From Patescibacteria group bacterium (GTDB lineage: Bacteria; Patescibacteriota; Doudnabacteria; UBA920; O2-02-FULL-48-8): a stretch of 64,000 bases of DNA. The position numbers and the translations under genes were made by a program. The stretch is taken from the NCBI GenBank assembly GCA_036278915.1, contig DASUKB010000001.1, positions 91,892-155,891 of the forward strand. The letters run 5' to 3'. Shown one piece after another: positions 1 through 62,818 of this stretch; position 1 is the first letter of the stretch; each line of letters starts with the position of its first letter. The notes under the pieces were generated by a model that worked only from the letters and a program-made list of their open reading frames with translations, was not told where the DNA came from and did no database searches.

Positions 1-1863
1 ATCCTTTCCGTGGACGAAGTCAATGACCCAGACATCGTTGCCATAAATGCCGCATCCGCCGCTTTGTCCGGATCCAACATTCCGTTTGAAGGGCCGATTG
101 CAGCCGTGCGCGTGGGCCGGGTCAAGGGCGAATACGTCATCAATCCCAATTACCAGGAGCGCGAAGAAGGCGATTTGGATTTGGTAGTTTCCGGCACCAA
201 GGAGCACATTATGATGGTGGAAGCCGGCGCCAAACAAATCACCGAAGCCGATATGATAGGCGCCATTAAGTTTGCAAAAGATTACCTGTCGCAGCTTTTC
301 GATTTGCAGATGGAACTCATAAACAAAGTCAAAGTCCCCAAAGCCGAAGTCGTATATATTTTGCCGGACAAAGACATTTACGCCGAAGTAGAAAAATCTC
401 AAGCCAAACTTGAGCAGGCTTTGTATGGCACATTCAGCAAAGAGATCCGCGAAAAGCAGGTGGACGAAGTCAAAAAGACAATCGTAGCGGAAATTACCGA
501 AGCGTATAAAGAAAAGCCCGAGATGAACGGGGAGAAAAACGCGAAATTGTCCTTTGACAAACTTCTCAAAAAAACCATCCGCAAAAATATTTTGGAATCA
601 GACAAGCGCATTGATTTGCGCCCGCTCAATGTCACCCGACCCGTGTCTTGCGAAGTTGGGGTGCTCCCGCGCACGCACGGCAGCGCTTTGTTTAACCGCG
701 GCGAAACTCAGATACTTACCACAGTGACTTTGGGCTCGGCTGGCGATGCGCAGATTCTGGACGGCATGGAAGACTTTGGCGTGGACGGCACAGTCAAACG
801 CTACATCCATCACTACAATTTCCCGGGCTACTCCGTGGGCGAAGTTGCTCCTATCCGCGGACCTGGCCGGCGCGAAGTCGGCCACGGTGCTCTGGCTGAG
901 CGCGCGGTGGAAGTGGTCATACCTGACAAAGAAAAGTTCCCGTACACCTTGCGCCTTGTTTCCGAAGCCTTGGGCAGCAACGGTTCTACATCCATGGGTT
1001 CAACCTGCGGTTCAACTCTGGCGCTTATGGATGCCGGCGTGCCAATTACAGATATGATCGGCGGCGTGGCCATGGGACTCATCCTTGATCCTGCCAGCGG
1101 CAAATACAAAGTTCTTACAGACATTCAGGGTATAGAAGACGGCAATGGCGACATGGATTTCAAAGTTACCGGTTCGGACAAAGGCATTACCGCCCTTCAG
1201 ATGGACAACAAGACCAAGGGCCTCACTGTAGAAATTTTGGAAAAGGCTTTGGCGCAGGCGCGCGAAGGCCGCATGCACATTCTGGACGTTATGAAAAAGA
1301 CAATTGATAAGCCGCGCGCGGAAATGTCGCCTCTGGCACCTCGCATCGAGACCATGCAGATTAATCCGGAAAAAATCCGCGACGTCATAGGCTCCGGCGG
1401 CAAGATTATAAACAAAATCATTGCCGACACTGGAGTTAAGATTGACATTGAAGATTCCGGTCTTGTGATGGTTGCCTCAAATAACGCCGAGGGTATGAAA
1501 AAGGCGCTTGAGATAATTCACAATCTGACGCGCGAGATTAAAGTCGGAGAAGTCTTTCACGGCAAAGTCAACCGCATTATGGACTTCGGCGCGTTTGTGG
1601 AACTGACCCCGGGCCACGACGGCCTCTGCCACGTTTCGGAACTTGCCTGGACTCACGTCAACAAAGTTGAAGACGTCGTGCACATCGGCGACGAGCTGGA
1701 CGTCAAAGTCGTGGAAATCGACCACATGGGCCGCATCAACCTTTCGCACAAAGTTTTACTCCCGCGCCCAGAAGGCGGCAGCATCGACGAGAGGCCCAGA
1801 CCTCCGAGAGGACCAGGGCATGACCACGGCCACGGCGGCAGGCATTTTGCATCCAGGCATTAA
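1..1863 (+). CDS. pnp: Polynucleotide phosphorylase (PNPase), 3' portion; gene starts upstream of the window
   Basis: Open frame from base 1. Second RNase PH core ([22 protein letters not shown]) followed by KH ([11 protein letters not shown]) and S1 ([15 protein letters not shown]) domains. Gly/His/Arg-rich C-terminal tail. Confidence 0.9.
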
Positions 1864-1883
1864 ATTAATTGAAAGGCAATTAA

Positions 1884-2099
1884 GTGAAAAAAATTCTTTG
1901 TTCGAACCTGGGCGGGCCGGCAGACTGCACCACAGTCATCACCGGCAACACCGCACAGGAGATGATCGACAGCGGTTGGAAGCACCTCCAGGAAACGCAT
2001 CCGGAGCAGGCCGAAAACATTATGAAGAACCCAAAAGAAGCCAATGACAAATGGATGGCGGAGTTCAAAGAAAAGTTCGACACTTTGGAAGACATGTAG
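1884..2099 (+). CDS. DUF1059 small metal-binding protein
   Basis: 71 aa, MKKILCSNLGGPADCTTVITGNTAQEM... matches the DUF1059 pattern (C-x-D/N-x-G-x-x-C, then TxxGxTEEE-like). Followed by a hairpin terminator at 2110-2142. Confidence 0.6.
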   Translation: MKKILCSNLGGPADCTTVITGNTAQEMIDSGWKHLQETHPEQAENIMKNPKEANDKWMAEFKEKFDTLEDM

Positions 2100-2196
2100 C
2101 AAAATCCAAAACAGTCCAGCAATTTCGCTGGGCTGTTTTATTTGTTTGTTTGGGTTGTTTGTGCAATACTTTTGGCAACAGGAACTGGAGGGCTTT

Positions 2197-2493
2197 ATGT
2201 GGAAACTGCTGCTGTTTTGTTCGTGCCCTCTGCTTGCGTATTGGGCATATGCGTCAAAACGGGCGCAGGACGAAGCCATGGCGACGCAAATACGCGAATG
2301 CGAAGCCTTGATTCTGTGCCATGACATGACCAGCAAAATTTCCGAACTAGCCGACGATCCGGACATAACCGAAAGCACATGGCGGGAATGGTTGCCGGTA
2401 GTAGAGGCTGCTGATGCGGAAATCAGCGCCAAATGCCCACGTCTGGAAATGGCGTCAATTGCGGACTTGGTCTATGCGGTAGTCGCTCATTGA
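2197..2493 (+). CDS. Hypothetical membrane-anchored small protein (paralog 1 of a pair)
   Basis: The ORF-track entry 2044..2493 overlaps the DUF1059 gene, so the internal ATG at 2197 (GGAGGG SD 5 nt upstream) is the likely start. N-terminal TM segment. C-terminal motif EW..LP..EAAD shared with 2647..2976. Confidence 0.45.
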   Translation: MWKLLLFCSCPLLAYWAYASKRAQDEAMATQIRECEALILCHDMTSKISELADDPDITESTWREWLPVVEAADAEISAKCPRLEMASIADLVYAVVAH

Positions 2494-2505
2494 TTCTGGA
2501 GCGCA

Positions 2506-2536
2506 GGCACTTCGTTTGAAACGAGGTGCCTTTTGT
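2506..2536 (+). terminator. Intrinsic terminator, member of GGCACTTCG...CGAGGTGCC hairpin family
   Basis: GGCACTTCG-tttgaaa-CGAGGTGCC plus TTTT. Related copies at 2992-3021 and 4233-4266. Confidence 0.55.
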
Positions 2537-2646
2537 ATTTGCGGCAGTAATTTGGCGAGTTGAGATGTTTTTTTTGAAAGCTTGATTTTTGCAATCGTTA
2601 GTGGCAAAATAGGGCAGATCGGAGTCTGCGTACCCAAGGAGGAGAC

Positions 2647-2976
2647 ATGAGATTGCTTTACTATATTCTTGGCGTGTTCACAATCCCTTGTGCTGTCGTT
2701 GTAATCAACGGGCTTGCACGCCATTTTTTCCGGCGCGAGGACATCAGCGTCGAGGACGCGGTCAGGCTCAATGTGGCCATGAGCCGCCAGATTGAGGATT
2801 TCTTGGCTGACCTTGATATGACTGTAGAGGAATGGAAAGCCACACTCCCGTATTTCGAAGCAGCCGACAGGCTCATACAAGAGACTCTGGATGAGATGCC
2901 TACCCATGTTCGGATGGTTCGGGAAATCATCTCACAGATGGAGGATGGAGAGCTGACTTATCCCACACCCGCATAG
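2647..2976 (+). CDS. Hypothetical membrane-anchored small protein (paralog 2 of a pair)
   Basis: GGAGG SD upstream of the ATG and an N-terminal TM helix. TVEEWKATLPYFEAAD aligns with TESTWREWLPVVEAAD of the 2197 gene. The same GGCACTTCG...CGAGGTGCC terminator follows both genes. Confidence 0.5.
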   Translation: MRLLYYILGVFTIPCAVVVINGLARHFFRREDISVEDAVRLNVAMSRQIEDFLADLDMTVEEWKATLPYFEAADRLIQETLDEMPTHVRMVREIISQMEDGELTYPTPA

Positions 2977-3189
2977 GGCATTCCCGACCAAGGCACTTCG
3001 CGCAAACGAGGTGCCTTTTTGTTTGACGGAGCGCAAGCAAAGTGTATAATTTAAACAAGCGGCACAAGGCCGCTATTTTCTTTTTCATAAAACCCCCCCG
3101 ATTTCGGCAAAGCCGAAATCTGCCCCCTCTTTAATAAAGAGGGGGCGGGTCAGCCCAGGGTCAGCGGGGGAGTTTAGTAGAATTAATCC

Positions 3190-3714
3190 ATGCCAGAAAT
3201 AAATTTGGAATTTAAATCCGGAAAATCTTACCGCAGACTTGCGATTCGCGTCTTCCCCAGCGGCCGGGTGGTGGTCACCAAACCGCGCAGGCTTAGCGTT
3301 TCCCAGGCGCAATTTTTCGTAGACAAAAAGATGCACTGGATCCGCAAAAAACTGGAATTCTACAAATCCGCGCACGTCTACGACTGGAAAGATTATGTGC
3401 CGGATTTGCCCAAATCCCTGGAATTCGTAAAGGGGAGGCTTGCGCACTTCAACCAGCACTACCAATTTGCCTACGGCATGGTGCGGGTAAAAAATCAGAA
3501 ATCCGTGTGGGGCACGTGCTCTGCCCGCAAAAATCTCAACTTCAATGCCAAAATAATTGCCCTGCCGCCAGAGCAGGCGGACTACATCATAGTCCACGAG
3601 CTTTGCCACACTCGCGAACTAAACCATTCGCAGAAATTTTGGGATTTGGTAGCCGAGCAAATCCCAGACTACAAACGCATCAAACAAGAGCTAAAACTAT
3701 ACTCTTTCGACTGA
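3190..3714 (+). CDS. YgjP-like/WLM (DUF45) HExxH metal-dependent hydrolase
   Basis: 174 aa. HELCH motif near the C-terminus (IIVHELCHTRELNHSQKFW) is typical of the YgjP/M48-like zinc hydrolase family. Confidence 0.65.
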   Translation: MPEINLEFKSGKSYRRLAIRVFPSGRVVVTKPRRLSVSQAQFFVDKKMHWIRKKLEFYKSAHVYDWKDYVPDLPKSLEFVKGRLAHFNQHYQFAYGMVRVKNQKSVWGTCSARKNLNFNAKIIALPPEQADYIIVHELCHTRELNHSQKFWDLVAEQIPDYKRIKQELKLYSFD

Positions 3715-3809
3715 TTTTCAGGCAGCCTGTCCGCCGAAGCTCGATAAGTTGGAAGCTTTACGCGAAGGCGGATTCGTGGCAAACTATGCCGGCAAGGAGG
3801 ATTTAGTAT

Positions 3810-4220
3810 ATGGCTACTCCGGAGTGGGATAAGCTGCTTTCTGCAGCCAACAAGGCGAGATTCAACGCCTATGCGCCTTACTCGGAATTTCTGGTGGGCG
3901 CTTCGGTACAGACAGTCGGCGGCGAAATTTTTTCCGGCTGTAACGTGGAGAACGCTTCCTACGGCCTCACCATCTGTGCCGAGCGCACGGCGCTGGTGAA
4001 AATGGTGTCCGAGATTGCCTTTCCGGTACTTGCGGCTGTCTGCGTCGTACTCAAGGGTGGCCACATGAAAGGCGGATCCCCTTGCGGCGCCTGCCGGCAG
4101 TTTATATGGGAGTTCTGCCGAGGCAACGAGGATGTGCCGGTGCTTATGACCGATCCGGATGACACCGGCAGAAGGTACAGCACTATCGGCCAACTGCTCC
4201 CCGAAGCGTTTGTGTTGTAA
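3810..4220 (+). CDS. cdd: Cytidine deaminase
   Basis: CAERTA (H/C-A-E zinc site) and PCGACRQ motifs. 136 aa, typical of homotetrameric Cdd. Confidence 0.85.
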   Translation: MATPEWDKLLSAANKARFNAYAPYSEFLVGASVQTVGGEIFSGCNVENASYGLTICAERTALVKMVSEIAFPVLAAVCVVLKGGHMKGGSPCGACRQFIWEFCRGNEDVPVLMTDPDDTGRRYSTIGQLLPEAFVL

Positions 4221-4801
4221 AACAACCCTAAGGGCACTTCGTCTCAGACGCGGTGCCTCTTTTATTTGGGTCAAAAAAATTTACAATTTATCATTTATAA
4301 TTTCTAATTTCTCATCTTTCGTCTGCACGAGGTACAAAAAAACAGTCCAGGCTTTCGCTGAACTGTTATCATGTTTTCGCAATCCTCGTTTGTTGCGCTG
4401 CGGCCGGGCAGTAGGAGGCCTTATTCACCTCAACAGGTGCTTTTTGTCACGGGACTAGGTAGTCATTCCTCGGTCCCCACGACATCCATCCGATCCACTT
4501 CCCGGATGTTTTGACAAAAATGAGCTCTAGGCGATTTTTCACGCCATACCCTCCAACCCGGCCCCAAGCGCTTTGTTCACAAATATGTTACCTCGAAATC
4601 CCAAACTCCGCAACGAAAGCTTATCAGGTTAATTCCCCACACCCGTATGGGGCGCTAAAAACGAGTTGACAGTGGATGCTTTTAGATGTAGGATCAGGGT
4701 GTTCGAAATCCACAAGGAGATCATAGCTAGGTCACGCAGACCGAGGTTATTCAGGTTCTTCCTGTGAAATCCTTGATGGGTTTCACTAAAAAGGAGGAGT
4801 T

Positions 4802-5044
4802 ATGAGTTACTCTCCGGTCTCAATATGCATCTATTGCATGTTGCGTAGATTTTGGCAGGTGGATCGTCGCGGGCTGAACAAGCTCGAGGCGATGGGCATC
4901 CTCACGGTTGCCACCATTTGTCAAAAGACTCGCCGCGACCTCAGGCAGATACGAGGTGTGGGCAATCTGACGATTGCGGAGGTTGAGCGAATACTCGCCA
5001 TCTTCAACGAGAAGTTGAAAGAAGATCTTCCACTCTTCAGATAA
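4802..5044 (+). CDS. Small helix-hairpin-helix DNA-binding protein (RNAP alpha-CTD-like)
   Basis: 80 aa. The DLRQIRGVGNLTIAEVERIL motif is HhH-like. Strong AAGGAGGAG SD. GC-rich hairpin terminator at 5056-5087. Confidence 0.45.
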   Translation: MSYSPVSICIYCMLRRFWQVDRRGLNKLEAMGILTVATICQKTRRDLRQIRGVGNLTIAEVERILAIFNEKLKEDLPLFR

Positions 5045-5159
5045 CCCTACCCGAAGGCGCTCGCCCTTTGAGCGCCTTTTTCTTTTTGTGTCAAGAGACT
5101 AGGGTCTTGACCTTAGGATTGCTCAGGTCTACGTTTTAGTTGTAATTAACAATAACCAT

Positions 5160-5720
5160 ATGAGTCCCTATAGTCCCCAATATCATAATAGTTCTTGGTT
5201 TGGTGACTGGTGGTGGGTGATAGTCCTTGTGATTGTAGGAATTGCTGCCGCAATATATTTAATTTACACGGAGCTTGGCCGACGACATTCAACACGTTTA
5301 TTTTTGCGGAACCAAAAAGTACCACAAATAATGAAAGACCTCACTCCCTTGTCCTTTGAAATTTGGGTGAGGGGATTATTTATAAATATTGGAGCAGACG
5401 CCATACTTTCCAAACGAGAATCAAAAACCGGTTTTGATCACGGGATTGATTTAGTCGCGCATTACAAAGGTCAGAAAATTTGTATTCAATGCAAGAAATA
5501 TTTCCCGAACAGATTGGTCGATGAAACAATTTTGCGAGATTTATATGGAGCAATGGAGTATGGCAAATACGACAAAGCGGTACTTGTCACCACCAGCAGT
5601 TTTACTCGCCGCGCGCGAGAGTGGGCGGAGAAGGCTGATGATATGATTTTGATAAACGGTGAACTCCTCCAAAAGATGCGAGACAATACAGGAATCCTGA
5701 TAAACCTTTTAAATAAATAA
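5160..5720 (+). CDS. Membrane-anchored Mrr_cat (restriction-endonuclease-like) domain protein
   Basis: N-terminal TM helix (WWWVIVLVIVGIAAAIYLIY). The Mrr_cat pattern follows: LSFEIW..., ...GFDHGIDLVA..., ...ICIQCKKY..., ...VLVTTSSFTRRAREWA. Located in the AT-rich island. Confidence 0.6.
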   Translation: MSPYSPQYHNSSWFGDWWWVIVLVIVGIAAAIYLIYTELGRRHSTRLFLRNQKVPQIMKDLTPLSFEIWVRGLFINIGADAILSKRESKTGFDHGIDLVAHYKGQKICIQCKKYFPNRLVDETILRDLYGAMEYGKYDKAVLVTTSSFTRRAREWAEKADDMILINGELLQKMRDNTGILINLLNK

Positions 5721-5884
5721 CGCCCCACACTCCTATGGGGCGTTAAAATTTGACAAAATGCCCATTTGGCTATAAACTTTAGGAAAGATATAATTTTTTA
5801 GAGCGGCTTTTGCCGCTTTTTTTGTCTTAATTCCATATTGCCCTTGACGTCTTTTTTTGCCTATAGTAATATTTTATTACCTAT

Positions 5885-6211
5885 ATGCAAATAAGTAAAC
5901 TAGTCAAAAATTTAAGAGACCAAAGTGAGTTCACACTCGACGTTCTAGCAAAGAAGACCGGGTTATCTGCAGGTTTTCTATCTAGATTAGAAAAGGGCAA
6001 TTACGATAACAAGAACATACAATTGGAGACAATTATACGCTTGGCGAATGGTTTGGGACAAAAGTTAAAAGATTTTTTGGACAACTTGCAGATTATAGAC
6101 CAGAATGAATTACCTCCTTTGAATCTATACCTGAGAGAAAAGTATAAGATAAAAAAAGATTCAGATATAAAAACTATCGAAGACATAATTAATAAGTTTA
6201 CTGATGAGTAA
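5885..6211 (+). CDS. XRE-family helix-turn-helix transcriptional regulator
   Basis: FTLDVLAKKTGLSAGFLSRLEKGN is a canonical Cro/C1 HTH. Overlaps the next gene by 8 nt. Confidence 0.8.
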   Translation: MQISKLVKNLRDQSEFTLDVLAKKTGLSAGFLSRLEKGNYDNKNIQLETIIRLANGLGQKLKDFLDNLQIIDQNELPPLNLYLREKYKIKKDSDIKTIEDIINKFTDE

Positions 6212-6776
6212 TTCCATAATACAAACTATAAATTCTGATGCAGAAAAAATCGCTGCAGCAATAATAGACTCGATCAATTATGGAGAAAATCCGCCACTTG
6301 GAAAGTTAATTGGTTGGTTAGAAGATAATCTACGCTCTCAGATTGATCTTAAACATATCGATTTGGGTTCTACTCCTGTTTGCGGTCTCACGTATCATGT
6401 TTTTTCAAAAGATATGTATGTGGTCCGTGTTGACAAAACCAATCCATACACAAGACAAAAATTTACGGTTGCTCACGAACTAGGACACATAATAGGAGAC
6501 TTGCAGTTAACAGCTATAGCTGGTTATTTCGACGGCGAATTGGAAAATGTAAAAAGTGGTTTGGAAAGATTTTGCAATAGATTTGCCGCAGCTTATTTAA
6601 TGCCACCAGAAATATTTAAAAGGATTTGGTCCATGTCTGGAGATAAGAATTCAACACAAATAACGAAGATGCTTTATGTTGCTTCAAGATTTGGTGTTTC
6701 CGAAGAGGCGGCCAGGTATAGAGCTATCGAACTTGGATTACTAAATTACAGTAAACGGGACAACGACCGAAATTAG
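6204..6776 (+). CDS. ImmA/IrrE-family metallopeptidase (DUF955)
   Basis: HEXXH in FTVAHELGHIIGD. Classic XRE+ImmA/IrrE pair arrangement. Confidence 0.75.
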   Translation: MSNSIIQTINSDAEKIAAAIIDSINYGENPPLGKLIGWLEDNLRSQIDLKHIDLGSTPVCGLTYHVFSKDMYVVRVDKTNPYTRQKFTVAHELGHIIGDLQLTAIAGYFDGELENVKSGLERFCNRFAAAYLMPPEIFKRIWSMSGDKNSTQITKMLYVASRFGVSEEAARYRAIELGLLNYSKRDNDRN

Positions 6777-6800
6777 CGTTGTAGAAAGGACGAAACAAAA

Positions 6801-7091
6801 ATGATCAGAATTACTTGTATCAACAAAGATAACGGTAATCATGAAAACCCACATTTGGCCATTACCTACTTAGGTTGGATAGAAGACGGTACTAATGCGG
6901 TAGGAAAATGGGCTCGATTACAGTTATATAGATGGATCAAGGAGCAAGGCGGGATTGCGTATGTTATGGATGCTATTAAGAACCGCGTATACGTAAAACC
7001 TGCCGTTTCTGTAATGGGGAATCCTTATGTTCGGACTGAATCCGATGGCAAGGTTACAAATAATTTACTCTCGTTAATTGAGTGTAAATAG
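6801..7091 (+). CDS. DUF3892 domain protein
   Basis: 96 aa. The C-terminal ...VRTESDGKVTNNLLSLIEC matches the conserved DUF3892 signature (T..D....NNLL.LP.C). Confidence 0.55.
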   Translation: MIRITCINKDNGNHENPHLAITYLGWIEDGTNAVGKWARLQLYRWIKEQGGIAYVMDAIKNRVYVKPAVSVMGNPYVRTESDGKVTNNLLSLIECK

Positions 7092-7190
7092 CAAAGACCC
7101 GAATATAATTCGGGTCCATACTCGAATTATATCACAAAAAGCGGCACTAGTGCCGCTTTTTGCTTTTTTGAATTAAAAATGTCAAAATAA

Positions 7191-8042
7191 ATGAAAGATT
7201 TAAATCAACTAGCCTTGAAATTAAAGACCAAAATTGACGCCCAGCCCTTTATAAAGTGGGCTGGCGGTAAAAGACAGCTTTTAGATGAGCTTGAGAAGCA
7301 CAAGCCTAAATGGTTCAATAGATACTTTGAACCATTTGTTGGCGGTGGAGCTTTATATTTTCGGATTCAGCCAGGGCAAAGTTTTCTGTCGGATATAAAT
7401 CCTGAATTAGTAAATCTATATTTAATAATTCAAAGTAAAGTTGATGAATTAATTTCTGAACTCAAAAAATTAAAAGTATCGGAGAAAGAATTTTATAAAA
7501 TAAGAAATATTGACAGAAAACCGGAATATAGAGAATGGAATAACATAAAAAAAGCTGCAAGATTTATATATCTAAATAAAACTTGCTTTAATGGATTGTA
7601 CAGAATGAACTCCAAAGGCCATTTTAATGTTCCTTATGGTAACCAAAACAATCCAAAAATTCTTGACGAATATAATCTCCGGCAAGTAAATAAATTATTG
7701 CAAAATTCTGATATCAAATGTCAATCCTATTCTGGAATAGAAAAAAATGTAAAGAAAGGTGACTTTGTCTACTTTGATCCTCCTTATGCTCCATTAAACA
7801 AATCTTCTTTTACGAAGTACTTTAAAGACGATTTTGATATTAAAATGCAGGTTGATCTACGAGATTTATGCGACCGTTTAGATAAAAAGGGTGTTTATTT
7901 TATGATTTCAAATTCTCATACATCCTTGATTTTTGGATTGTATAAAAACTATGATATCAAGGTAGTTGACGCAATCAGAGCTATCAACTGCAAGGGTTCT
8001 GGTAGAGGAAAAGTGAAGGAAGTCTTAATAACGAATTACTGA
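7191..8042 (+). CDS. Dam-family (D12 class) N6-adenine DNA methyltransferase
   Basis: The N-terminal SAM motif (KWAGGKRQLL, FEPFVGGGALYF) and the catalytic DPPY (VYFDPPYAP) match the alpha-group m6A MTases of the Dam/DpnM/T4Dam family. Confidence 0.85.
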   Translation: MKDLNQLALKLKTKIDAQPFIKWAGGKRQLLDELEKHKPKWFNRYFEPFVGGGALYFRIQPGQSFLSDINPELVNLYLIIQSKVDELISELKKLKVSEKEFYKIRNIDRKPEYREWNNIKKAARFIYLNKTCFNGLYRMNSKGHFNVPYGNQNNPKILDEYNLRQVNKLLQNSDIKCQSYSGIEKNVKKGDFVYFDPPYAPLNKSSFTKYFKDDFDIKMQVDLRDLCDRLDKKGVYFMISNSHTSLIFGLYKNYDIKVVDAIRAINCKGSGRGKVKEVLITNY

Positions 8043-8043
8043 A

Positions 8044-9297
8044 ATGTCCAACCGAGAACTATGGTCAAAGGTGTTTGAAATAAAAAAATTTGATCTAAAT
8101 AAAGATATTCATTTTATTACCGCAAAGGAGATAAAGCAGATCACTGGCCAAGAGCCAAGGAATATGGCTAAGATGGATAGCACTGCAGATCTGCCGTCTA
8201 TTTTCAAAAATAACGGTTATTTTTTATTACCAATTGAAAATGGGAGATATGAAATTATACGAGGTGAGGGATATCATAAATTAGAAAAAAATAAAAAGAC
8301 AGGTGAATATGATGCAGATATTAAATTTTCTATTACGACTGCTGCCAGGGGTGCAAGTGAGATGGAATATTTAGATTACTCAATTTATACAGGAGTGCTT
8401 GAGAAAATTTTGGGTCTAGGTTCCATGTACCCATCCATCCGAGGGCGTGGCCGAAGCCGAAGTTTTAATTTTTTTGTTAACCGTCATCAAGTGGATGTTT
8501 CAGGTGTCCAACTGGAAGTAGATTCAGGTTTAGAAGCGGAGCATGCCATAGTTCTTATTGAAGCCAAAATGGAGACTCCTGAGGATTTTATTGTCCGACA
8601 ACTTTATTATCCATATAGACATTTTGGCTTGATCTCGCCTTATAAAAAAATTGTCCCAACTTTTTTTACTTATGATTTAGGCAATAAAGTTTATAAATAT
8701 TGGGTTTATGATTTTAAAAACGATGTAGATTACAATTCTATATATTTAAAATCCGTCCATGCTTTTAAAATCATAAGTACCGAACCAGTGGAACTAAGCG
8801 AGCTAAAACCTTTGGAAAACACGCAGATCGCTGATATTCCACAGGCCAATGATCTTGATAAAATTATAACTATGGTTTTTGGTGTTAATGAAAAGATTGA
8901 TGATTATAAAAAAATTGCAAAATATTTTGAGTTTAATGAGCGTCAGAGTAGCTACTATAGACAGGCTGCTGAGTCTTTAGGGTTAATCTCTTCTCATAAA
9001 GGTAAGTATTATCTTACCGATAAAGGGCAGAAATTGATTAAATTGTCTACTTCTGAGAGAAATATATTTTTTATTAAGCTCATCTCGGAATACGAGCTTG
9101 TGAAAAGTAGTTTGGATATTCTTCAGCATAAGTCGGTTTTGACCGATGGAGATTTAGTTAAGCTTGTCCGCCAAAACCATAAAATAAGTGGCAGCACTGT
9201 TATCCGACGCGCTCAATCATTGAAATCTTGGTTAAATTGGATCGCTGAGAGGACAAATACGTTTATAAAAGAAGATAACAAATTTATAGTCTCATAA
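8044..9297 (+). CDS. Putative PD-(D/E)xK restriction-endonuclease-like protein with C-terminal winged-helix domain (probable partner of the Dam-family MTase)
   Basis: Start codon 1 nt after the MTase stop (translational coupling). Candidate nuclease motif ...QLEVDSG...AIVLIEAKME (D...ExK). The C-terminal ~130 aa look wHTH-like (YYRQAAESLGLISSHKGKYYLT). No family can be assigned without a search. Confidence 0.4.
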   Translation: MSNRELWSKVFEIKKFDLNKDIHFITAKEIKQITGQEPRNMAKMDSTADLPSIFKNNGYFLLPIENGRYEIIRGEGYHKLEKNKKTGEYDADIKFSITTAARGASEMEYLDYSIYTGVLEKILGLGSMYPSIRGRGRSRSFNFFVNRHQVDVSGVQLEVDSGLEAEHAIVLIEAKMETPEDFIVRQLYYPYRHFGLISPYKKIVPTFFTYDLGNKVYKYWVYDFKNDVDYNSIYLKSVHAFKIISTEPVELSELKPLENTQIADIPQANDLDKIITMVFGVNEKIDDYKKIAKYFEFNERQSSYYRQAAESLGLISSHKGKYYLTDKGQKLIKLSTSERNIFFIKLISEYELVKSSLDILQHKSVLTDGDLVKLVRQNHKISGSTVIRRAQSLKSWLNWIAERTNTFIKEDNKFIVS

Positions 9298-9319
9298 TTT
9301 TATCCAATAATTTAAATCT

Positions 9320-9649
9320 ATGTCCAATTTGATGTATTTGGTTATCGGAATTGTGGTTGGGTATGTGATTGCCAGGGTTCAGCGCAATTTTGCTGCAAGA
9401 AAAGATTCTTCGCCTGCGGCTCAGAATGATAATTCTCTCAATCAACAACGGGCCGTGGAGCATCAGGCACATCTCGATAAAATTCTTGCAAGTTTCAATT
9501 CTGGAGATGAGATTACCAATGACAAAGTCCAGGCGTTGCTTGGGGTTTCTGATACAACTACTGGTAGATATTTGGAAGAACTAGAGAAGCAGGGGAAGCT
9601 GCAACAGATCGGTACTTTGGGGAAATATGTTAAATATCGAAAAATCTAA
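9320..9649 (+). CDS. Small membrane-anchored winged-helix protein
   Basis: N-terminal TM helix (LVIGIVVGYVIARV), then a predicted helical region ending in a wHTH-like segment (ALLGVSDTTTGRYLEELEKQGKLQQIGTLGKYVKY). Confidence 0.4.
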   Translation: MSNLMYLVIGIVVGYVIARVQRNFAARKDSSPAAQNDNSLNQQRAVEHQAHLDKILASFNSGDEITNDKVQALLGVSDTTTGRYLEELEKQGKLQQIGTLGKYVKYRKI

Positions 9650-9787
9650 CGCCCCATACGGGTGTGGAGAGTTAGAAGAAAAAAATCACTGATTTAAATT
9701 ACTTTCATTTTTATTAAATATACAAATTCAATTGATGAAGCAGATTACACCACATCTTTGGTACGATAAGCAGGCAAGAGGAGTATT

Positions 9788-10288
9788 ATGAACATACTAT
9801 ATGATGTAGCGGCGTGGGGGGCATTCTTTATGGCTGTAGCCGGAGCCGGGGCGGCTCTCACCGGACTTGTATTTGTAAGTATCACTTTGAATTTACAAAA
9901 AATCGTGGGGTCCGCCCGGTTGGTGGGGCGCGCAGAAGAAGCAGTGCTGCATTTGCTCTCAACTGTTATACTTTCTCTCGTCTGTCTTATGCCTGGCATA
10001 TCGGCTAAGCTTACCGGCATATTTGTACTCATACTTATAATCCCGACGTGGATTTTCTTAACTGACCTGCACCGCCGGGCTTACGCGGAGCAAAAGCAGG
10101 AAAACATGCGCTCGTTTATGTCGCGGTTCGTGCCAGCGCAGGTGGCGCTGGTGCCGATTATAATTTCTGGCATAAGCCTTATGGCGCATGGCGGCGGCGG
10201 TTTGGGCTGGCTGGCATTTGGACTTATGGCATCGGTGACAGTGGGCGTGGTGGATGCCTGGGTTTTGACTATAGAGATCATAAGATAA
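9788..10288 (+). CDS. Hypothetical polytopic membrane protein
   Basis: 166 aa with about 5 hydrophobic segments. No recognisable family. Confidence 0.4.
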   Translation: MNILYDVAAWGAFFMAVAGAGAALTGLVFVSITLNLQKIVGSARLVGRAEEAVLHLLSTVILSLVCLMPGISAKLTGIFVLILIIPTWIFLTDLHRRAYAEQKQENMRSFMSRFVPAQVALVPIIISGISLMAHGGGGLGWLAFGLMASVTVGVVDAWVLTIEIIR

Positions 10289-10290
10289 GC

Positions 10291-10548
10291 ATGAGCCCGT
10301 TTTTTGTATACATTATCAAGTGCAAAGACGGGACGCTTTATACCGGCATCACTACGGATTTGGACCGAAGGATTGCGGAGCATAATTCGTCCAAGCTTGG
10401 CGCCAAATACACCCGCGCGCGCCGGCCCGTAAAACTGGCTTATTCCCAAAAATTCCTCACTCGCTCTGCTGCCTGCCGGCAAGAAGCGAGAATCAAGCAA
10501 TTTACGCGTGTGGAAAAGCTTGCGCTCATAAAAAAGAAAAGGCGATAA
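10291..10548 (+). CDS. GIY-YIG nuclease superfamily protein (YhbQ/UPF0213-like)
   Basis: FFVYIIKCKDGTLYTGITTDLDRRIAEHN...AKYTRARRPVKLAY is the GIY-YIG core. Confidence 0.75.
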   Translation: MSPFFVYIIKCKDGTLYTGITTDLDRRIAEHNSSKLGAKYTRARRPVKLAYSQKFLTRSAACRQEARIKQFTRVEKLALIKKKRR

Positions 10549-10620
10549 TTAGAAATTTTTATGGTTATTCGTTGACATGCGTGGTGGTTTTGCTAGAATT
10601 CTCTTTGTGAAGGAGGGTTC

Positions 10621-12245: not shown

Positions 12246-12321
12246 CGTGCGGTTTTTTTGACACCCTAAGCGCTTTTTATATTTGTTTGCCAAGCCCTAG
12301 CAATGGTATAATTTTATCAGT

Positions 12322-12588
12322 ATGAAGAAGAATACATTAGTTCTAATAGTTCTCATAATTCTGCCGGTTTTTTTGATAAATGTACTTCAAAACCTAAACA
12401 ATAAATATAAATTCGTATTACTAATAGTTTCTATCTTGTCCAGCTTATGGATTGTTATAAGATCAGCAAGATTTACGAATATAAGAGGTAAGATTATTTG
12501 GATGTCTGTAGGGGGAATATTAGCAGCCTTATTGATTCTATATTTTTGGATTGCTTATTCCTGGGTTCACGCTAATTTTATTTTATAA
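12322..12588 (+). CDS. Small 3-TM protein, tandem paralog 1 (type A, C-term WVHANFIL)
   Basis: MKKNTLVLIVLIILPV... Preceded by a TGgTATAAT extended -10 (12305-12312) and TTGCCA (12287-12292). No SD; likely a leaderless or short-leader mRNA. Confidence 0.55.
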   Translation: MKKNTLVLIVLIILPVFLINVLQNLNNKYKFVLLIVSILSSLWIVIRSARFTNIRGKIIWMSVGGILAALLILYFWIAYSWVHANFIL

Positions 12589-12627
12589 TTATTTGCCAAG
12601 CCCTAGCAATGGTATAATTCTATCTGT

Positions 12628-12906
12628 ATGAAGAAGAATACATTAATCCTTTTATTTTTGATCCTTCTGCCAGTGGGTTTGGGTTTTGCCTATGACGCTT
12701 CTGGTATGTATGACCATACTACTGGAACTAAATTTACGCTCTTATCCATAGCGCTACTTTCTAGCATTTATTTATTTTTTAGATCTTTATCATTAGAAAA
12801 AAGTAACGTCAAGAACTTTTGGGTTGCCATTTCATGTATCTTAATTGCTACTTTATTACTTTTCATTATGGCAGGATATTCGTTTACTAGCCTAGAAATT
12901 GGATAA
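12628..12906 (+). CDS. Small 3-TM protein, tandem paralog 2 (type B, C-term SLEIG)
   Basis: Its 60-nt upstream region is nearly identical to that of paralog 1 (TTGCCA 12593-98, TATAAT 12613-18). Body diverged. Confidence 0.55.
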   Translation: MKKNTLILLFLILLPVGLGFAYDASGMYDHTTGTKFTLLSIALLSSIYLFFRSLSLEKSNVKNFWVAISCILIATLLLFIMAGYSFTSLEIG

Positions 12907-12948
12907 ATGTAAATAATTATTTCGCCACCTAGGGTATATTCTATTGGC

Positions 12949-13221
12949 ATGAAGAAGAATATAATCATATTAATATTTCTTGTTGTGCTACCTACTGTAC
13001 TAGAATTGTTGCCGTTAAACCCAACGGATTATAGCAATAGGACCGCATACAGCCTTTTGACTGTGTCGTTGGTATCGAGCATATGGATATTTGTGCGTAC
13101 ATTAGCATATGAAAAATCTTGGACTAAGTACGCATGGGTAACTGTTTCAGTTATATCAATATTATTTTTTGTAACTTGGATATATATTGGCTACTCGCTG
13201 TCCCATATAGAAATAGGATAA
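12949..13221 (+). CDS. Small 3-TM protein, tandem paralog 3 (type B, C-term HIEIG)
   Basis: MKKNIIILIFLVVLPTV... Upstream GGTATATT -10-like box. Confidence 0.5.
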   Translation: MKKNIIILIFLVVLPTVLELLPLNPTDYSNRTAYSLLTVSLVSSIWIFVRTLAYEKSWTKYAWVTVSVISILFFVTWIYIGYSLSHIEIG

Positions 13222-13273
13222 ATTAAAAAAACAAAATAGCCGAAGGACTTTTTCTAAATTGATATCTAATATT

Positions 13274-13546
13274 ATGAAAATGAAAAGGAATATCTTGATT
13301 TTTATCTTTTTGGTAGTTCTGCCACTCGTTTTGGTAAAAATTATACCAAATCTTAGTAACGAATATAGCTTTGTTGCATTATCGATATCCATATTAGCGA
13401 GTATTTGGATAGTAATAAGGTCTATAAAATTACCAAGTTCCAAAATTAGAATTACTTGGATAATTATAGGAGCATTATTGGTAATTGTATTGAGTTTATA
13501 TTTTTGGCTTGCGTATGCTTGGGTCCATGCAGACTATATTTTATAA
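13274..13546 (+). CDS. Small 3-TM protein, tandem paralog 4 (type A, C-term WVHADYIL)
   Basis: The ORF-track start (13259) is a TTG. The ATG at 13274 (MKMKRNILIF...) aligns with the other copies. Confidence 0.5.
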   Translation: MKMKRNILIFIFLVVLPLVLVKIIPNLSNEYSFVALSISILASIWIVIRSIKLPSSKIRITWIIIGALLVIVLSLYFWLAYAWVHADYIL

Positions 13547-13624
13547 AATTTCATTAAATCATAAATAAAATAGCCATAGGGTCGGTTGTTTGACAAGCCC
13601 CAGCAATGGGTATATTTTATCGAT

Positions 13625-13873
13625 ATGAAGAAAAAGTTGATTATATTTCTAAGTTTGGTAGTACTACCCGATTTAATTGGTTATTGGTTTTATAATACAA
13701 GAATTTATACTGTAACTTCATGGGTTTCGATTCTGGCGTCACTGTGGTTGTTAGTTTTAAGTATTAAAGAGAGAAATTGGGTTCATTTTAGTATTTTTCT
13801 TTTAATCTTTGTTGCGGCAGTAATGTATTTCTTAATTGGTATATCGATTAGTCACATAGAAATAGGCGGATAA
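13625..13873 (+). CDS. Small 3-TM protein, tandem paralog 5 (type B, C-term HIEIGG)
   Basis: The ORF-track start at 13586 lies inside the promoter (TTGACA 13589-94, 16-nt spacer, TATATT 13611-16). The ATG at 13625 (MKKKLIIF...) aligns with the family. Terminator ~13896-13925. Confidence 0.5.
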   Translation: MKKKLIIFLSLVVLPDLIGYWFYNTRIYTVTSWVSILASLWLLVLSIKERNWVHFSIFLLIFVAAVMYFLIGISISHIEIGG

Positions 13874-13945
13874 AATACCGAAAACAAAAAACCAAAACAA
13901 AAATAGCCACAGGGGCTATTTTTTTCGTAATTAATTTCTAATTTT

Positions 13946-16690
13946 ATGAAACATACTTTGAAAATATTAATACCAGCAGTTTTTGTATGTTTGTTTTTTG
14001 CCCACACTGCCAACGCGCAAGTCAACTTCCGTATCCATAGCTTCGGCATGATCTTGCAGCCAAATGACGCGCCAGGCCAGTACACCTTTTTGATTAAACA
14101 AAAGATTAATGGCGAGTATGTGGACCTTATAAACAAGCCCTTGGATGTTCACCTTACTGATCTTGTAAGCTTGTTCGCATCTCTTGATAATGAAGATTAC
14201 CTTATTACGATGGATTTGCCGCCCGGTGCGGTGCTGGACAGCGTGGATTGTACGGATTCGAATTCTTTAAGTACGTTCATCCCAATCCCGGGAGGTGTAC
14301 ACGCGCTCCCGCAAGGTACGGGTAATCTTCTTTGTACTTTTACTACTTCAAAAGCTGCGACAAGCAAGACACCTGTTCTAATCGTTCCAGGAGTACTTGG
14401 AACTAATATTAAAAAAGGTGACGATGTCCTATGGCTAAATCCACTTAAGTCAATAGTGGATCCAGCTGATCATTTCATGAATTCTTTGTCTTTCAGCACT
14501 GATTTAAATCCGGTCGATCCCGATGTAACCTTTGGATCTGTCATAGGTAAGGTTGGCGTGGGTAGAATTAGTTATGATTACACTCAAAGTTTACGGCAAG
14601 AGTTGATAGACCAGCATTATACCGAAGGTGTTGATCTGTTTACCTTTCCATATGATTGGCGTTATGGCGTTTCTGGTAAAGATTCAAGTGGAGATTTTGT
14701 AAATCTCAAGGCATTTGAGGGCCAGATGAATTATATTTTGACACAGACCGGTGCGGGCAGGTCAGCTGGTAAGGTGGATGTAATTGCCCATTCAACAGGC
14801 GGTTTAATCGTTAAGTAGTATATTCAAGAACATCCGTCGGATAATCATATAGATAAGGCTGTTTTTGTGGGTACCCCAAACTTAGGCGCACCCAAAGCTT
14901 ACAAAGTTCTTATCGCTGGAGATAACTTTACTATACAGGGATTGAGCGATAGTGAGATGAAATTTTTGGCTCAAAACATGCCAGTAGTTTACGATTTAGC
15001 CGCAGACCAGAATTATTATAATCTGGCGGGTAGTCCAATGACTATCCATTTCGACCCAGCGTTAGGTAAACCAGATACTCAGGATACTCTAACCGAAATG
15101 ACTAACCAGTTAGAAAATAATGATCTAATTAACTCATTGGCGATGTCGGATAGTCAGGTCTTACATGACTCTTTGGATAATTTGGATATTTCTAGCACGA
15201 ATGTGGATACTTACAATATTATTGGTTGCAAAACAGGTACTTTTGGAAGTTTTACAGCAAATTTGGGTATAAATAATGATATAGAATCGTTTGATTTTCC
15301 TAAAATCACGCCTGGTGATGGGACGGTCCCGCTTTTGAGCGCTAAAAGTATAAATGCTTCCGATGATCATACCTTTTATGCGCCGGGGGTTCAGCATAGT
15401 AGTTTACTTTCTGCTGATGGACCAATGCAGGAGATCGTAAATATTGTAAGCGGCAGTAATTTGGATGTCGGCAAGGTTGTATCGCAATCCAGCCTTAATG
15501 ATGACCCTTCTCAATGCCAACTCAAGAAAGGGAAATTTTTGGGAATCTTCAGCCCTGTTTCTATAAGCATTACGGATCAGGAAGGGCAGATTTCGCAAGT
15601 TCTAGATGACGGCAGCATAGAAAATGACATTCCCGGAGCAGATTATGAAGTCTGGGGCGAACATAAGTATATTTATCTTCCCACAGATGCCGGCCAGCAG
15701 TATTCGATTGAACTGACAGGCACAGGAACCGGGACTTTTACTCTCAAGGATGAGGATATTGAAGATAATAATGTTACTGGAACGGAGGTGTTCAGTAATC
15801 TGCCAGTGACGACCAGCCTCAAAGGCCAGGTCGTGTTAGCTGATACCTCTTCGCTTGAATTGGATAACAATGGGGATGGTGTATTTGATCAAACACTCTT
15901 GCCGACTTCGGTTGTAAATGGCGAGCAATCCGACGATATAACTCCTCCCATTACCTCGGCGGATATTTCTGGCATCCAAGGACAGCCAAATTATTTCCGC
16001 AGTAACGTTGCTATCAAATTATCCGCGCAGGATTTTGTGGATCCGGCCAAGCCAAATCAAACCTCCGGCATGCTGAATACGCACTTCAGTTTAGACGGAT
16101 CAGAGATAGAAAATTACCAAGTACCAATTACCGTTTCTTCGGAAGGCGCGCACACAATCCGATTTTTCTCAACGGATCGGGCAGGGAACAATGAGCCCGA
16201 GCAAACAATCAACTTTGTTGTGGACAAAACTGCGCCTGAATTTAGTATCCAATTTGATCCCAGCAGCCAAGATATTAAATTTACGGGCACAGACAATTTG
16301 ACTCCGGCTGAAAATGTAAGCCTCCAGGACAATGATGATCAGATAATAATTAGCGATCAAGCCGGCAACACTTCAGAAATTATCCTGTCGAGCAAGGATC
16401 GCAAGAAAAAAATGACTGCCGAGATTGAAGGACTTTTGTATAACGGCGTGGCGGCGGATTTGAGCAAAAATAAATTTAGTTTCAGCTGGCAGTACGACAA
16501 ACAAGGCCAGCTCAAAAAACTTACGCAAAGCGCGCAGGATAAGAAAAACTTTAGAATTGATGCCACTTTCGACGGGCAGCAAACCCGTTTTCGCGGAAAT
16601 GGCAACCAAGGAAAAATAAACGAGCTGCGGCCTGGACTAGTCTCCCTAAAAATTCGCACGCAGACAGGGGATCTGATGTGGTCGTATTAA
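13946..16690 (+). pseudogene. Secreted LCAT/PGAP1-like alpha/beta-hydrolase (lipase/acyltransferase) with C-terminal beta-rich domains, interrupted by one in-frame TAG (14816-14818)
   Basis: Signal peptide MKHTLKILIPAVFVCLFFAHTANA. PVLIVPGVLGTNIKKGDDVLWLNP (the LCAT-family PVvLvPG motif). Nucleophile elbow AHSTGGLIVK, then TAG, then YIQEHP...KAVFVGTPNLGAPKAYK in the same frame. Later GDGTVPLLSAKS and HSSLLS. The two ORF-track entries (13946..14818, 14867..16690) share one frame. Confidence 0.6.
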
Positions 16691-33519: not shown

Positions 33520-33627
33520 GCTCGGGTCAGCATTTTTTCTCGGACACGTCCGCCTTGGCGGCGGATTAAAGTGCTCGACATTGGAAAGTCTCGCACGTTG
33601 TCCTCGAAAAATATGCCGACCCTCGCT
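33520..33627 (+). repeat. Conserved ~105-nt structured intergenic element, copy 1 (upstream of tatD)
   Basis: About 80-85% identical over ~105 nt to 43046-43148 and 51765-51872. Shared core TAAAGTGCTCGACATTGGAAGGTCTCGCACGTTGTCCTC. T6/A6 outer arms. An inner hairpin varies between copies with compensatory changes. Confidence 0.6.
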
Positions 33628-43045: not shown

Positions 43046-43148
43046 GCTCGGACATCAGTTTTTTTCGGACACGGCCGCTTCGGGCGGCCTAAAGTGCTCG
43101 ACATTGGAAGGTCTCGCACGTTGTCCTCAAAAAACTGCTGTCCTCGCT
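43046..43148 (+). repeat. Conserved ~105-nt structured intergenic element, copy 2 (downstream of tRNA-Pro)
   Basis: Aligns with the 33520-33627 and 51765-51872 copies. The inner hairpin GGCCGC-ttcgg-GCGGCC has a UUCG-like loop. A classical terminator (43154-43180) follows directly. Confidence 0.6.
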
Positions 43149-49301: not shown

Positions 49302-49360
49302 AAATAAAAAAGACCCACAAGCGGCACACACTTTCGTGTGTACACACTCATGGGACGTGA

Positions 49361-49762
49361 TTACGACCGGGTCTTCGGGAAAATTCCGGTCTCGATGCGT
49401 ACGAAGCCTTCTTCGGTCTGCTTCAGTATCAAATCGCAATGTTTGGACTTCTCCAGTCCTCCGAAGTAGGTCATAATTCCGATGGCCACCAGCTCTTCCG
49501 GTGTTGTCTTGCATCTGGTTGACAAGTCCGCCAGCATATCCGCCGCTTCATTCTTCACGTTGACCAGGATCGTGGTATCACCCGTGCTTGGGTGTAGCAG
49601 GAAGGGAAAAATTTCATCGCTATCCCGATCTTCCCAGTACAAGGGCTTGCCTACGATTTCCTGTTGCTTGCCGAGCAGGACAGCGCTCATAGCGTTCGAG
49701 ATTGTTTTTGAATCTCGGAGTTTGGCTTTCTGTTCCTGAGAAACTGCCACAACAAGTCTCAT
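49361..49762 (-). CDS. Hypothetical protein, GC-rich two-gene cassette, gene B
   Basis: The internal ATG (M19 of the ORF-track entry) carries a GGAGG SD. The longer ORF start would overlap the upstream repeat/terminator. No family recognised. Confidence 0.4.
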   Translation of the reverse strand: MRLVVAVSQEQKAKLRDSKTISNAMSAVLLGKQQEIVGKPLYWEDRDSDEIFPFLLHPSTGDTTILVNVKNEAADMLADLSTRCKTTPEELVAIGIMTYFGGLEKSKHCDLILKQTEEGFVRIETGIFPKTRS

Positions 49763-49834
49763 ATCTTCCTCCGTTAAAGAAAGACCCGCAAGCGGCACAC
49801 ACTTTCGTGTGTACACGCCTGCGGGTCGCGATCG

Positions 49835-51170: not shown

Positions 51171-51245
51171 ATTGACCTAACTACTAATTGATCTAATTTC
51201 TAAACTTTAGGTCAATTAGAAATTAGTAATTAGAAATTTTATTTT

Positions 51246-59856: not shown

Positions 59857-59882
59857 ACAGTTTTTAATTACTAATTTCTAAG

Positions 59883-62801: not shown

Positions 62802-62818
62802 TTTCTAATTGACCGATT

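Follow-up and report, generated by a model that had tools for sequence, protein, structure and literature searches.

We describe a short repeat unit of 28-30 bp that occurs in six copies in three genomes. Three of them (A, B and C) lie within 5.04 kb of the window, by which we mean the whole stretch of 64,000 nucleotides that was analysed (Patescibacteria, Doudnabacteria lineage; assembly GCA_036278915.1, contig DASUKB010000001.1, positions 91,892 to 155,891). The others are D1 and D2 in the locus L047 and E in the locus L102. The unit is rare, clustered and discrete, it has dyad symmetry and it recurs beside AT-rich restriction-modification (R-M) cargo of unrelated kinds. We take it to be a probable recombination site rather than an ordinary terminator. 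We tentatively suggest that it is the crossover site of a site-specific recombinase that joins accessory modules. The copies would then be the joints between such modules in the interval between the pnp and GIY-YIG genes of a Doudnabacteria-like Patescibacteria chromosome.

The first-pass annotation of this DNA had reported an 18-mer, CCACACCCGTATGGGGCG at 4637-4654 of the plus strand, with its exact reverse complement at 9650-9667, and this perfect inverted pair was recovered. A third copy after the Mrr gene has the 2 mismatches reported for it and lies at 5725-5742 of the plus strand, instead of 5721-5742. At up to 3 mismatches, the window contains four matches to the 18-mer against 0.02 expected from shuffled sequences. 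The 18-mer is the core of the larger unit, which consists of inverted arms of 10-11 bp and an asymmetric centre of 8-9 nt, for example TAACGCCCCA/CACCCGTA/TGGGGCGTTA, with the consensus TAAC(G/A)CCCCA/CACCCGTA/TGGGGCGTTA. When aligned, the copies in the window are 28 nt each, with a 10-nt arm, an 8-nt centre and a second 10-nt arm (Table 1). Copy B is a perfect 10-bp dyad whose first 3 bases are the stop codon of the Mrr gene. In copy C, the arm facing the module starts with the stop codon of the winged-helix (wHTH) gene and the arm facing the host DNA is degenerate, as is the left, host-facing arm of copy A. The arm consensus is departed from at 6 positions, of which 5 fall on the two host-facing arms (A left, C right) and 1 on the four module-facing arms (p ~0.02 in a post-hoc binomial test of our own). 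From the asymmetry of the centre it is evident that copy C really has the opposite orientation to A and B.

The motif had also been described as a hairpin, and the third copy as a stem-loop with a T-rich tract. Copy B folds strongly as RNA (-17.1 kcal/mol, z -5.2), whereas the T-rich tract is weak, with only TTAAAATTT on the plus strand and a better T-run on the gene-free minus strand. Copy C folds moderately (-11.3 kcal/mol on the plus and -12.8 kcal/mol on the minus strand). Copy A is no better than its shuffles (-7.1 kcal/mol, z 0.18). In an alignment of nine related hairpins, 92% of the cells were paired, double changes occurred in 4 of the 10 pairs and the observed covariation score was reached by none of 500 shuffles. 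This compensated dyad symmetry fits a hairpin and a dimer-binding palindrome alike.

Two covariance models run with the filters off detected only A, B and C in the 64 kb, and for three random sites in the window a cluster as tight as this has p = 0.018. No copy was found by covariance model in the 5 kb upstream of the window, in locus L001, and the half-site TGGGGCGYTA is confined in the window to the three units. The flanks of the copies showed no similarity for any pair (all z < 2), therefore the unit is discrete; a longer conserved element around the motif was rejected, as the flanks are at background similarity. The fourth match to the 18-mer overlaps the C-terminus encoded by a small open reading frame (ORF) and got no score from either covariance model. 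For matches of this 15/18 type we estimate a chance expectation of ~0.04 in the window, and it may be a decayed copy of the unit. Two paralogous small membrane-protein genes are found here (2196-2531 and 2647-3017), each followed by the same terminator hairpin AGGCACTTCG...CGAGGTGCCT; the C-terminal extension of the second gene holds the 15/18 motif remnant.

The locus L047 is part of the 234-kb Patescibacteria contig Ga0155499_17, which has several genes in common with the Doudnabacteria locus L102. Copy D1 contains the exact 20-mer CCCCACACCCGTATGGGGCG and is located between divergent genes. Copy D2, TAACACCCCA/CACCCCGTC/TGGGGTGTTT, has the same orientation as D1 and is 2.9 kb apart. The DNA block between them has 29-37% GC within DNA of 50-55% GC and carries a REase_II and MTase_II pair unrelated to that of the window, plus a HAD hydrolase; no integrase was found within the 11.9 kb examined. 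Copy E is found in the Doudnabacteria metagenome-assembled genome GCA_019659055.1 (L102, 5826-5862) and has the centre and the 3' flank of D2. Its stem shows a compensatory C-G to G-C change, and it adjoins the edge of a region of 26-36% GC. The centres of A, C and D1 are identical between genomes, and so are those of D2 and E, with proteins that are ~60% identical.

Larger collections were searched for further copies. The 16-base core gave 94 single matches in metagenomes, nearly all of them chance or coding sequence (such as a conserved enzyme motif). Only L047 extended past the core; the others scored at most 34 bits, compared to 46-49 bits for true copies. Among 185,579 species genomes scanned with CCACACNCNTATGGGGCGYTA, a pattern so strict that it would miss D1, D2 and E, one match was found, a chance match at the 5' end of a Chlamydiales tRNA after its promoter. 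Viral contigs yielded nothing relevant by core, D2/E variant or cargo proteins, and the sole match in a plasmid collection was a short stretch of a Dam methylase gene. About 100 kb from five further relatives, including a locus with a large defence island, contained no copy.

The first-pass annotation had considered that the motif may simply be a reused terminator. The window contains no further copies, copy A has no gene end within ~400 nt upstream, and copy C is inverted relative to its gene and is followed on the plus strand by an A-rich and not a U-rich tract. Judged by terminator features, B has a strong stem and a weak U-tract, E and D2 are acceptable, and A has a weak stem, no U-tract and no upstream gene. 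Three of the six copies (A, D1 and D2) are not at the 3' end of a gene, and D1 cannot be a terminator since it lies between divergent genes. To our knowledge, terminator loops are not constrained to identical asymmetric sequences. As read from the sequences, the same asymmetric centre in genomes this diverged would rule out convergent terminators. This weakened the terminator reading. Copy B could serve as a terminator, and such activity is conceivable for some copies only.

Ordinary intrinsic terminators could also resemble each other because they were duplicated together with the neighbouring DNA. B and E are terminator-like and a consensus scan flagged B and C. The lack of homology between the flanks, the identical loops in different genomes beside unrelated neighbours, the position of A and D1 away from gene ends and the wrong orientation of C without a U-tract make such a duplication improbable, and the other terminator-like hairpins of the window all differ in sequence.

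The strongest competing explanation is a REP-like or terminator-derived family of palindromic hairpins, self-propagating or copy-pasted, which accumulates in permissive accessory DNA and moves no modules. Its function, if any, would be that of terminators or insulators. Such a family would explain the good stems of B, E and D2 with U-rich tracts behind them, the exact start of B and C at stop codons, and the fact that the arms of the unit are shared with plain terminators after pnp (L101, L104) and elsewhere in L005. The genome also has other short intergenic repeats (76-nt in three and 56-nt in two copies), and GC-rich palindromes after stop codons generally speak for such elements. REP elements likewise have conserved centres and occur in both orientations. 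The copies, however, are few and tightly clustered at R-M modules and not dispersed; in the 234-kb contig of the relative the exact core occurs once, and the partner copy is 2.9 kb from it. The annotated genes include none of the RAYT or IS200-like kind, and REPIN doublets are absent. In addition, A and D1 have no gene to terminate, C lacks a U-tract on the plus strand and A folds at shuffle level. We regard the hairpin family as somewhat unlikely.

The unit might instead be an operator at which a dimeric DNA-binding regulator controls the transcription of accessory or defence genes from a promoter just downstream. In favour of this possibility, most copies have promoter-like hexamers behind them: ~4-13 nt past the 3' end of A, B, E and D1 there is an extended -10 or a TTGACA like that of -35 sites, and D2 has a weaker candidate. 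The spacing is inconsistent, with offsets to the predicted promoters of about -57, -53 and -39 by our count, and copy C has no convincing promoter on either side. A dyad with mirrored changes fits a homodimer as well as a hairpin. For HTH dimers, on the other hand, a conserved asymmetric centre and a half-site spacing of ~18 bp are unusual. The window island does encode HTH proteins, but the islands of the three genomes share no regulator. As a terminator followed by a promoter is also the normal compact intergenic layout, we think that an operator is improbable.

The genes enclosed by the copies in the window are those for the HhH and Mrr proteins from A to B, and those for an HTH regulator, an M78 peptidase, a DUF3892 protein, a D12 methyltransferase, a restriction enzyme and a winged-helix protein from B to C. 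This restriction enzyme, a protein of 417 amino acids (aa), matched a Type II restriction-enzyme model over its full length. The G+C content at third codon positions (GC3) is 0.52-0.69 for the host genes, except for the large ORF 14867-16690 with 0.43. It is 0.40 for Mrr and 0.29-0.40 from the HTH gene through the wHTH gene, with 0.29-0.30 for the Type II R-M pair. The repeats had been placed exactly at the compositional boundaries, which was found for copy C only; with its host-like composition, the HhH gene leaves copy A ~450 nt outside the AT-rich block. For the HhH protein, no homologue but itself was found among 5.8 billion proteins.

The DNA around copy A was also inspected. The segment 4221-4801, which includes this copy, has no convincing ORF over 580 nt, which is unusual for a compact genome. 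It contains terminator-like hairpins at 4341-4367 (minus) and 4426-4439 (plus) and a structured HhH leader (z -2.7). A search of 4200-5900 against Rfam gave nothing significant. A degraded recombinase in 4221-4801 was considered: no wholly internal ORF exceeds 52 aa, apart from a 99-aa ORF overlapping cdd, with the limit that fragments were not scanned against family libraries.

The first-pass annotation had compared the perfect 18/18 inverted pair to the terminal inverted repeats or recombination scars of a mobilised cassette. As terminal repeats, the pair would belong to a non-autonomous transposon spanning 4637-9667. A third copy lies inside this segment, the L047 pair is direct and not inverted, and the left repeat is outside the composition boundary. 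Flanking direct repeats were absent, with no target-site duplication at the ends of the 18-mer or of the 28-nt unit (flanks ...AGGTTAATTC and AGAGTTAGAA...). The island encodes neither a transposase nor an integrase. In 69 kb no transposase was detected in the Pfam matches of the island genes and the precomputed matches to ~20 kb, and beyond 20 kb only Xer-like paralogues were checked. We consider a transposon very improbable. The idea of a mobilised-cassette boundary fared better than that of terminal repeats, since the unit brackets an unrelated R-M pair in L047 and borders an AT-rich region in L102. In the form of a recombination site or junction element it has been strengthened, and we hold it tentatively.

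Other integration schemes were examined and rejected. An integrase-mediated island with attL and attR sites does not fit the inverted pair of the window, islands without an integrase and the absence of a tRNA or tmRNA within 29 kb; no tRNA, tmRNA or known non-coding RNA was found nearby as an integration target. An integrase was absent from the islands and from the rest of the 64 kb, where the genes beyond ~20 kb were checked for Xer-like paralogues only; the Xer homologue lies outside the window. The unit is not the chromosomal dif, as the GC skew is positive over all 64 kb and there are three copies and not one. All ORFs of the window >200 aa that are not nested in a larger plus-strand ORF are on the plus strand.

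The interval between pnp and the GIY-YIG gene is a hypervariable defence-gene hotspot and a swap site, as its content varies between relatives (Table 1), and within it the 4.6-9.7 kb segment represents just the latest layer. The window pnp is 81-91% identical (aa) to that of L004, L005, L104 and L105. In L005, the remnant directly after pnp is that of a homologue of the window Mrr gene. L104 and L105 are the closest relatives (PNPase 88-91%, GIY-YIG protein 77% aa identity). The arms of their single hairpin are those of the unit but for one compensatory pair, and its centre differs. It had been suggested to look in relatives for an empty site with one repeat copy left: the segment is indeed absent there and L104/L105 retain a hairpin with related arms, but with a different centre. 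The collections searched for an empty site contained no relatives closer than ~78-91% aa identity.

If the unit is a crossover site, its geometry would be of the tyrosine-recombinase type. The 10-8-10 layout, the conserved asymmetric centre, the low copy number, the position at joints of foreign modules in three genomes and the recombinase-free modules all resemble those expected of a core site. Modules would be gained, lost and flipped by recombination between the copies. By analogy with known sites, direct pairs (A and B; D2 and D1) would lead to insertion or excision and recombination of A with C to inversion of the 5-kb segment, since their centres are identical and inverted. For the copies behind genes, B and the L102 copy E, the hairpin probably doubles as a terminator. 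As there is no recombinase within the modules, the enzyme would act in trans. The only recombinase in the 69 kb is an Xer-type tyrosine recombinase encoded at L001 3233-4249, upstream of rpsO, outside the window and ~5.6 kb upstream of A, and no Xer-like paralogues were found in the genes beyond ~20 kb of the window. We infer recombination at the unit, with this conserved homologue as the only candidate enzyme seen. Going further, the Patescibacteria might have a cassette exchange of their own, with a 28-30 bp site that is neither dif nor attC and a host recombinase acting in trans, possibly a single Xer homologue. Defence modules would then be inserted, swapped and inverted through the 8-nt crossover region at a hotspot between core genes. 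This extended version we consider unlikely.

Several observations weigh against a recombination site. Products of recombination (an empty site, a circle or an inverted variant) were not found in two assemblies, between which the region shows no difference; over an overlap of 24 kb, a Logan contig from SRR25158533 was identical to the window and had the same orientation. No recombinase gene was linked to the sites in L047 or L102. The unit is unlike any Xer site known to us, and its centre has 8-9 nt and not 6. The orientation of the copies (A and B forward, C reverse) corresponds neither to the alternation of dif modules nor to the outcome of a single integration. On the left side, the drop in GC and GC3 starts at ~5050-5150 between the HhH and Mrr genes, so that copy A is not at the boundary. 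The arms AACGCC.CA/TG.GGCGTT are also present in ordinary terminators of relatives, so that the unit may be no more than the descendant of a terminator. The prior likewise opposes recombination, as most short GC-rich palindromes behind stop codons are terminators or REP-like elements. No copy was found in the L106 defence island of another Doudnabacteria genome nor in L004, L005 and L101, which have the same xer-rpsO-pnp synteny. Finally, the family is a small sample of six copies from three genomes.

The surroundings of the xer gene were searched for a dif-like site, and only an rpsO leader and a promoter are conserved there. This leader (GGTAGAAT..TTAATCCACGG..TTTCCTAG..ACGTG..GAAAGG) is conserved in four relatives together with the xer-rpsO-pnp synteny (L001 4250-4357; L004 4115-4234; L101 6383-6531; L005 ~3700-3836) and probably serves the autoregulation of S15. 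YgjP has its closest relative (78% aa identity) on a contig of JGI 3300050046, where the YgjP gene is followed by that of a 96-aa protein with an FtsK_gamma domain. In E. coli, the FtsK_gamma domain of FtsK activates XerD. This neighbour may be relevant to the involvement of Xer.

Table 1. Copies of the repeat unit, genes and signals of the window, and the pnp-GIY-YIG interval in relatives (positions refer to the window unless a locus is named)
Feature	Position	Strand	Remarks
Copy A, TAATTCCCCA/CACCCGTA/TGGGGCGCTA	4630-4657	+	covariance model 46.1 bits
Copy B, TAACGCCCCA/CACTCCTA/TGGGGCGTTA	5718-5745	+	covariance model 48.7 bits
Copy C, TAACTCTCCA/CACCCGTA/TGGGGCGTTA	9647-9674	-	covariance model 48.0 bits
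Possible decayed fourth copy, CCACACCCGCATAGGGCA	2963..2980	+	15/18 match; 3' end of small ORF 2647-2976
pnp (PNPase), 5'-truncated by window edge	10..1863	+	Pfam RNase_PH/KH/S1; conserved left flank of hypervariable interval
Promoter-like TTGACA-17-TAGGAT	4666..4694	+	consensus match only; 8 nt after copy A, upstream of HhH
HhH / RpoA-CTD-like orphan gene, 80 aa	4802..5044	+	Pfam RNA_pol_A_CTD, E 9e-6; GC3 0.63, host-like
Canonical terminator 3' of HhH	5053..5079	+	actual left composition boundary
Mrr-type (Type IV, methyl-directed) restriction endonuclease, N-terminal transmembrane segment	5160..5720	+	Pfam Mrr_cat, E 2e-22; PADLOC mREase_IV
Promoter-like hexamers, then GCGGC-N-GCCGCT hairpin and T-run	5750..5819	+	between copy B and HTH gene
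HTH_3 regulator	5885-6211	+	family/defence-model scan; with the peptidase a CapH/CapP-like regulatory pair
M78 / ImmA-like peptidase	6204-6776	+	partner of HTH_3 in CapH/CapP-like pair
DUF3892 protein	6801..7091	+	
D12 N6-adenine methyltransferase	7191-8042	+	Pfam; PADLOC MTase_II 1e-97; Type II R-M pair 7191..9297
DUF6996/6997/7226 restriction enzyme	8044-9297	+	Pfam; PADLOC REase_II 3e-39
Winged-helix (wHTH) protein, 109 aa	9320..9649	+	weak hits only
Orphan membrane-like protein, 166 aa	9788-10288	+	GC3 of gene after wHTH 0.56
Conserved GIY-YIG gene	10291-10548	+	right flank of hypervariable interval
Interval in the window	1864-10290		8.4 kb, about a dozen genes
Interval in L104/L105	L104 650-689		no genes; 40 nt, about one hairpin AAAACGCCTCA-TATTGATG-TGAGGCGTTT
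Interval in L005	6421-10529		Mrr remnant, MmeI-type system, YgjP
Interval in L004	6948-11150		MetK, DpnI, YgjP
L101			L104-type hairpin after pnp, then YgjP; contig ends before any GIY-YIG gene

Other repeats were noticed in this DNA. A recurrent module 5' of island genes in four genomes consists of sigma-70-like hexamers, a hairpin AAGCGGC-N3-6-GCCGCT, a T-run and the gene. It is found in the window at 3023-3085, 5750-5826 and 7135-7162, in L005 at 6600-6675, in L047 at 7995-7915 and 9170-9090 and in L102 at 215-285 and 740-810. In the window GCGGC..GCCGCT is confined to these three places (6 strand-matches, 0.25 expected). The module could be a 5' stabiliser, an attenuator, a tiny RNA or a second terminator. 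An intergenic repeat of 76 nt occurs three times (33536-33611, 43059-43134 and 51782-51857; 74-89% identity), with an internal GGCCGC..GCGGCC hairpin and T-run/A-run ends; one copy lies 20 nt after a tRNA-Pro gene, and no Rfam match was obtained for the repeat at the gathering threshold. A 56-nt direct repeat with an internal CACACACTTTCGTGTGT hairpin is present at 49306-49361 and 49777-49832 (84% identity, 471 nt apart). An AT-rich intergenic motif, TAATTTCTAATT, occurs with variants in both orientations at 4282-4310, 10547-10574, 13921-13944, 51210-51241, 59856-59884 and 62783-62814, including a 31-nt inverted pair of 97% identity at 51210 and 62784. A second AT-rich block (12262-13900, ~30-33% GC) is made up of four paralogous ORFs of ~90 aa in tandem, repeating every 306-331 nt, and is flanked by none of the three hairpin units.

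Bacteria of the candidate phyla radiation have tiny genomes with few recognisable mobile elements, and we know of no cultured genetics for them. For these reasons, the acquisition and exchange of their defence genes is largely obscure. The mobile-element biology of the lineage is poorly known, and R-M genes between repeats are already a known pattern. If true, a junction site that recurs at unrelated R-M cassettes would be a concrete, searchable marker of defence-gene exchange, a testable substrate for the Xer-type recombinase of the lineage and a help in setting the limits of accessory modules in metagenome-assembled genomes. Should it be no more than a hairpin family, the pnp-GIY-YIG interval is still documented as a hotspot of defence genes.

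The unit was compared with known systems. REP elements are numerous and dispersed, commonly form inverted doublets and accompany a RAYT gene. Like REPs and REPINs, the unit is an imperfect palindrome in the range of 20-40 bp that is extragenic, often follows stop codons, occurs in either orientation and has a conserved centre. Unlike them, it has three clustered copies in 64 kb and forms no doublets, and no RAYT gene was seen among the annotated genes. The attC sites of integrons have at least 57 nt with R''/L''/L'/R' boxes and GTTRRRY, lie in one orientation and are adjacent to intI/attI. They resemble the unit in that they form hairpins, lie at or next to the stop codon of the cassette and are recombined by an Xer-related tyrosine recombinase. 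An attC site was rejected, since the unit has 28-30 nt, GTTRRRY is present in C only, C is inverted and there is no IntI; the Xer homologue scored 120 bits with the integron integrase model, where the cut-off is 265. Integrative mobile elements exploiting Xer (IMEX), such as the CTX and TLC phages and the gonococcal genetic island, use Xer at the chromosomal dif. They share with the unit an island without its own integrase between short site copies, one of which is often degenerate, in a host that encodes Xer. The present locus differs in that it is not at the replication terminus and has, in the window, an inverted flanking pair and a site without resemblance to dif.

R-M units flanked by direct or inverted repeats have been described (Furuta, Abe & Kobayashi 2010, PMC2853133). 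Most of the repeats in that work are long, and the inverted-repeat cases come with short target duplications (PMC2853133). Common to both are R-M genes between repeats, which sometimes enclose only part of the gene set, and the allelic substitution of R-M types, here Mrr and a Type II system, with DpnI and MmeI in relatives. The unit differs as a hairpin element of 28-30 bp that has no duplication and recurs elsewhere with other cargo.

In the dif modules of Acinetobacter Rep_3 plasmids, the pdif site is 28 bp long, its 6-bp spacer lying between an XerC arm and an XerD arm of 11 bp each (PMC13141974). The modules are recombinase-free; C and D modules alternate, each between sites of inverse orientation, and pdif sites with identical spacers give inversion when they are inverse and deletion when they are direct (PMC13141974). 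Recombination at these sites is by XerC/XerD, and cointegrates are a further product. The unit differs from these sites in that it is chromosomal and found in Patescibacteria, has a centre of 8-9 nt and not 6 and an arm sequence unrelated to dif. Its two arms have nearly the same sequence in inverted form, where pdif has separate C and D arms. The pairs A/C and B/C are inverse but A/B and D2/D1 are direct, so that the orientations do not strictly alternate. Furthermore, the action of Xer at the unit is putative. Both systems have short sites of 28-30 bp with two inverted arms of the protein-binding type and an asymmetric spacer, accessory cargo (toxin-antitoxin, resistance or defence genes) without its own recombinase, and several sites in a row. 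The centres of A and C are identical and inverse, and their conserved arms face inward as in a D module. By analogy, the 10-8-10 geometry and the behaviour predicted for identical spacers would match those of the documented pdif sites. Taken together, the pdif/dif-module system of Acinetobacter plasmids is the closest documented analogue, and if cassettes are indeed exchanged at the unit, it would be a chromosomal counterpart of these modules in an ultra-small, episymbiotic lineage.

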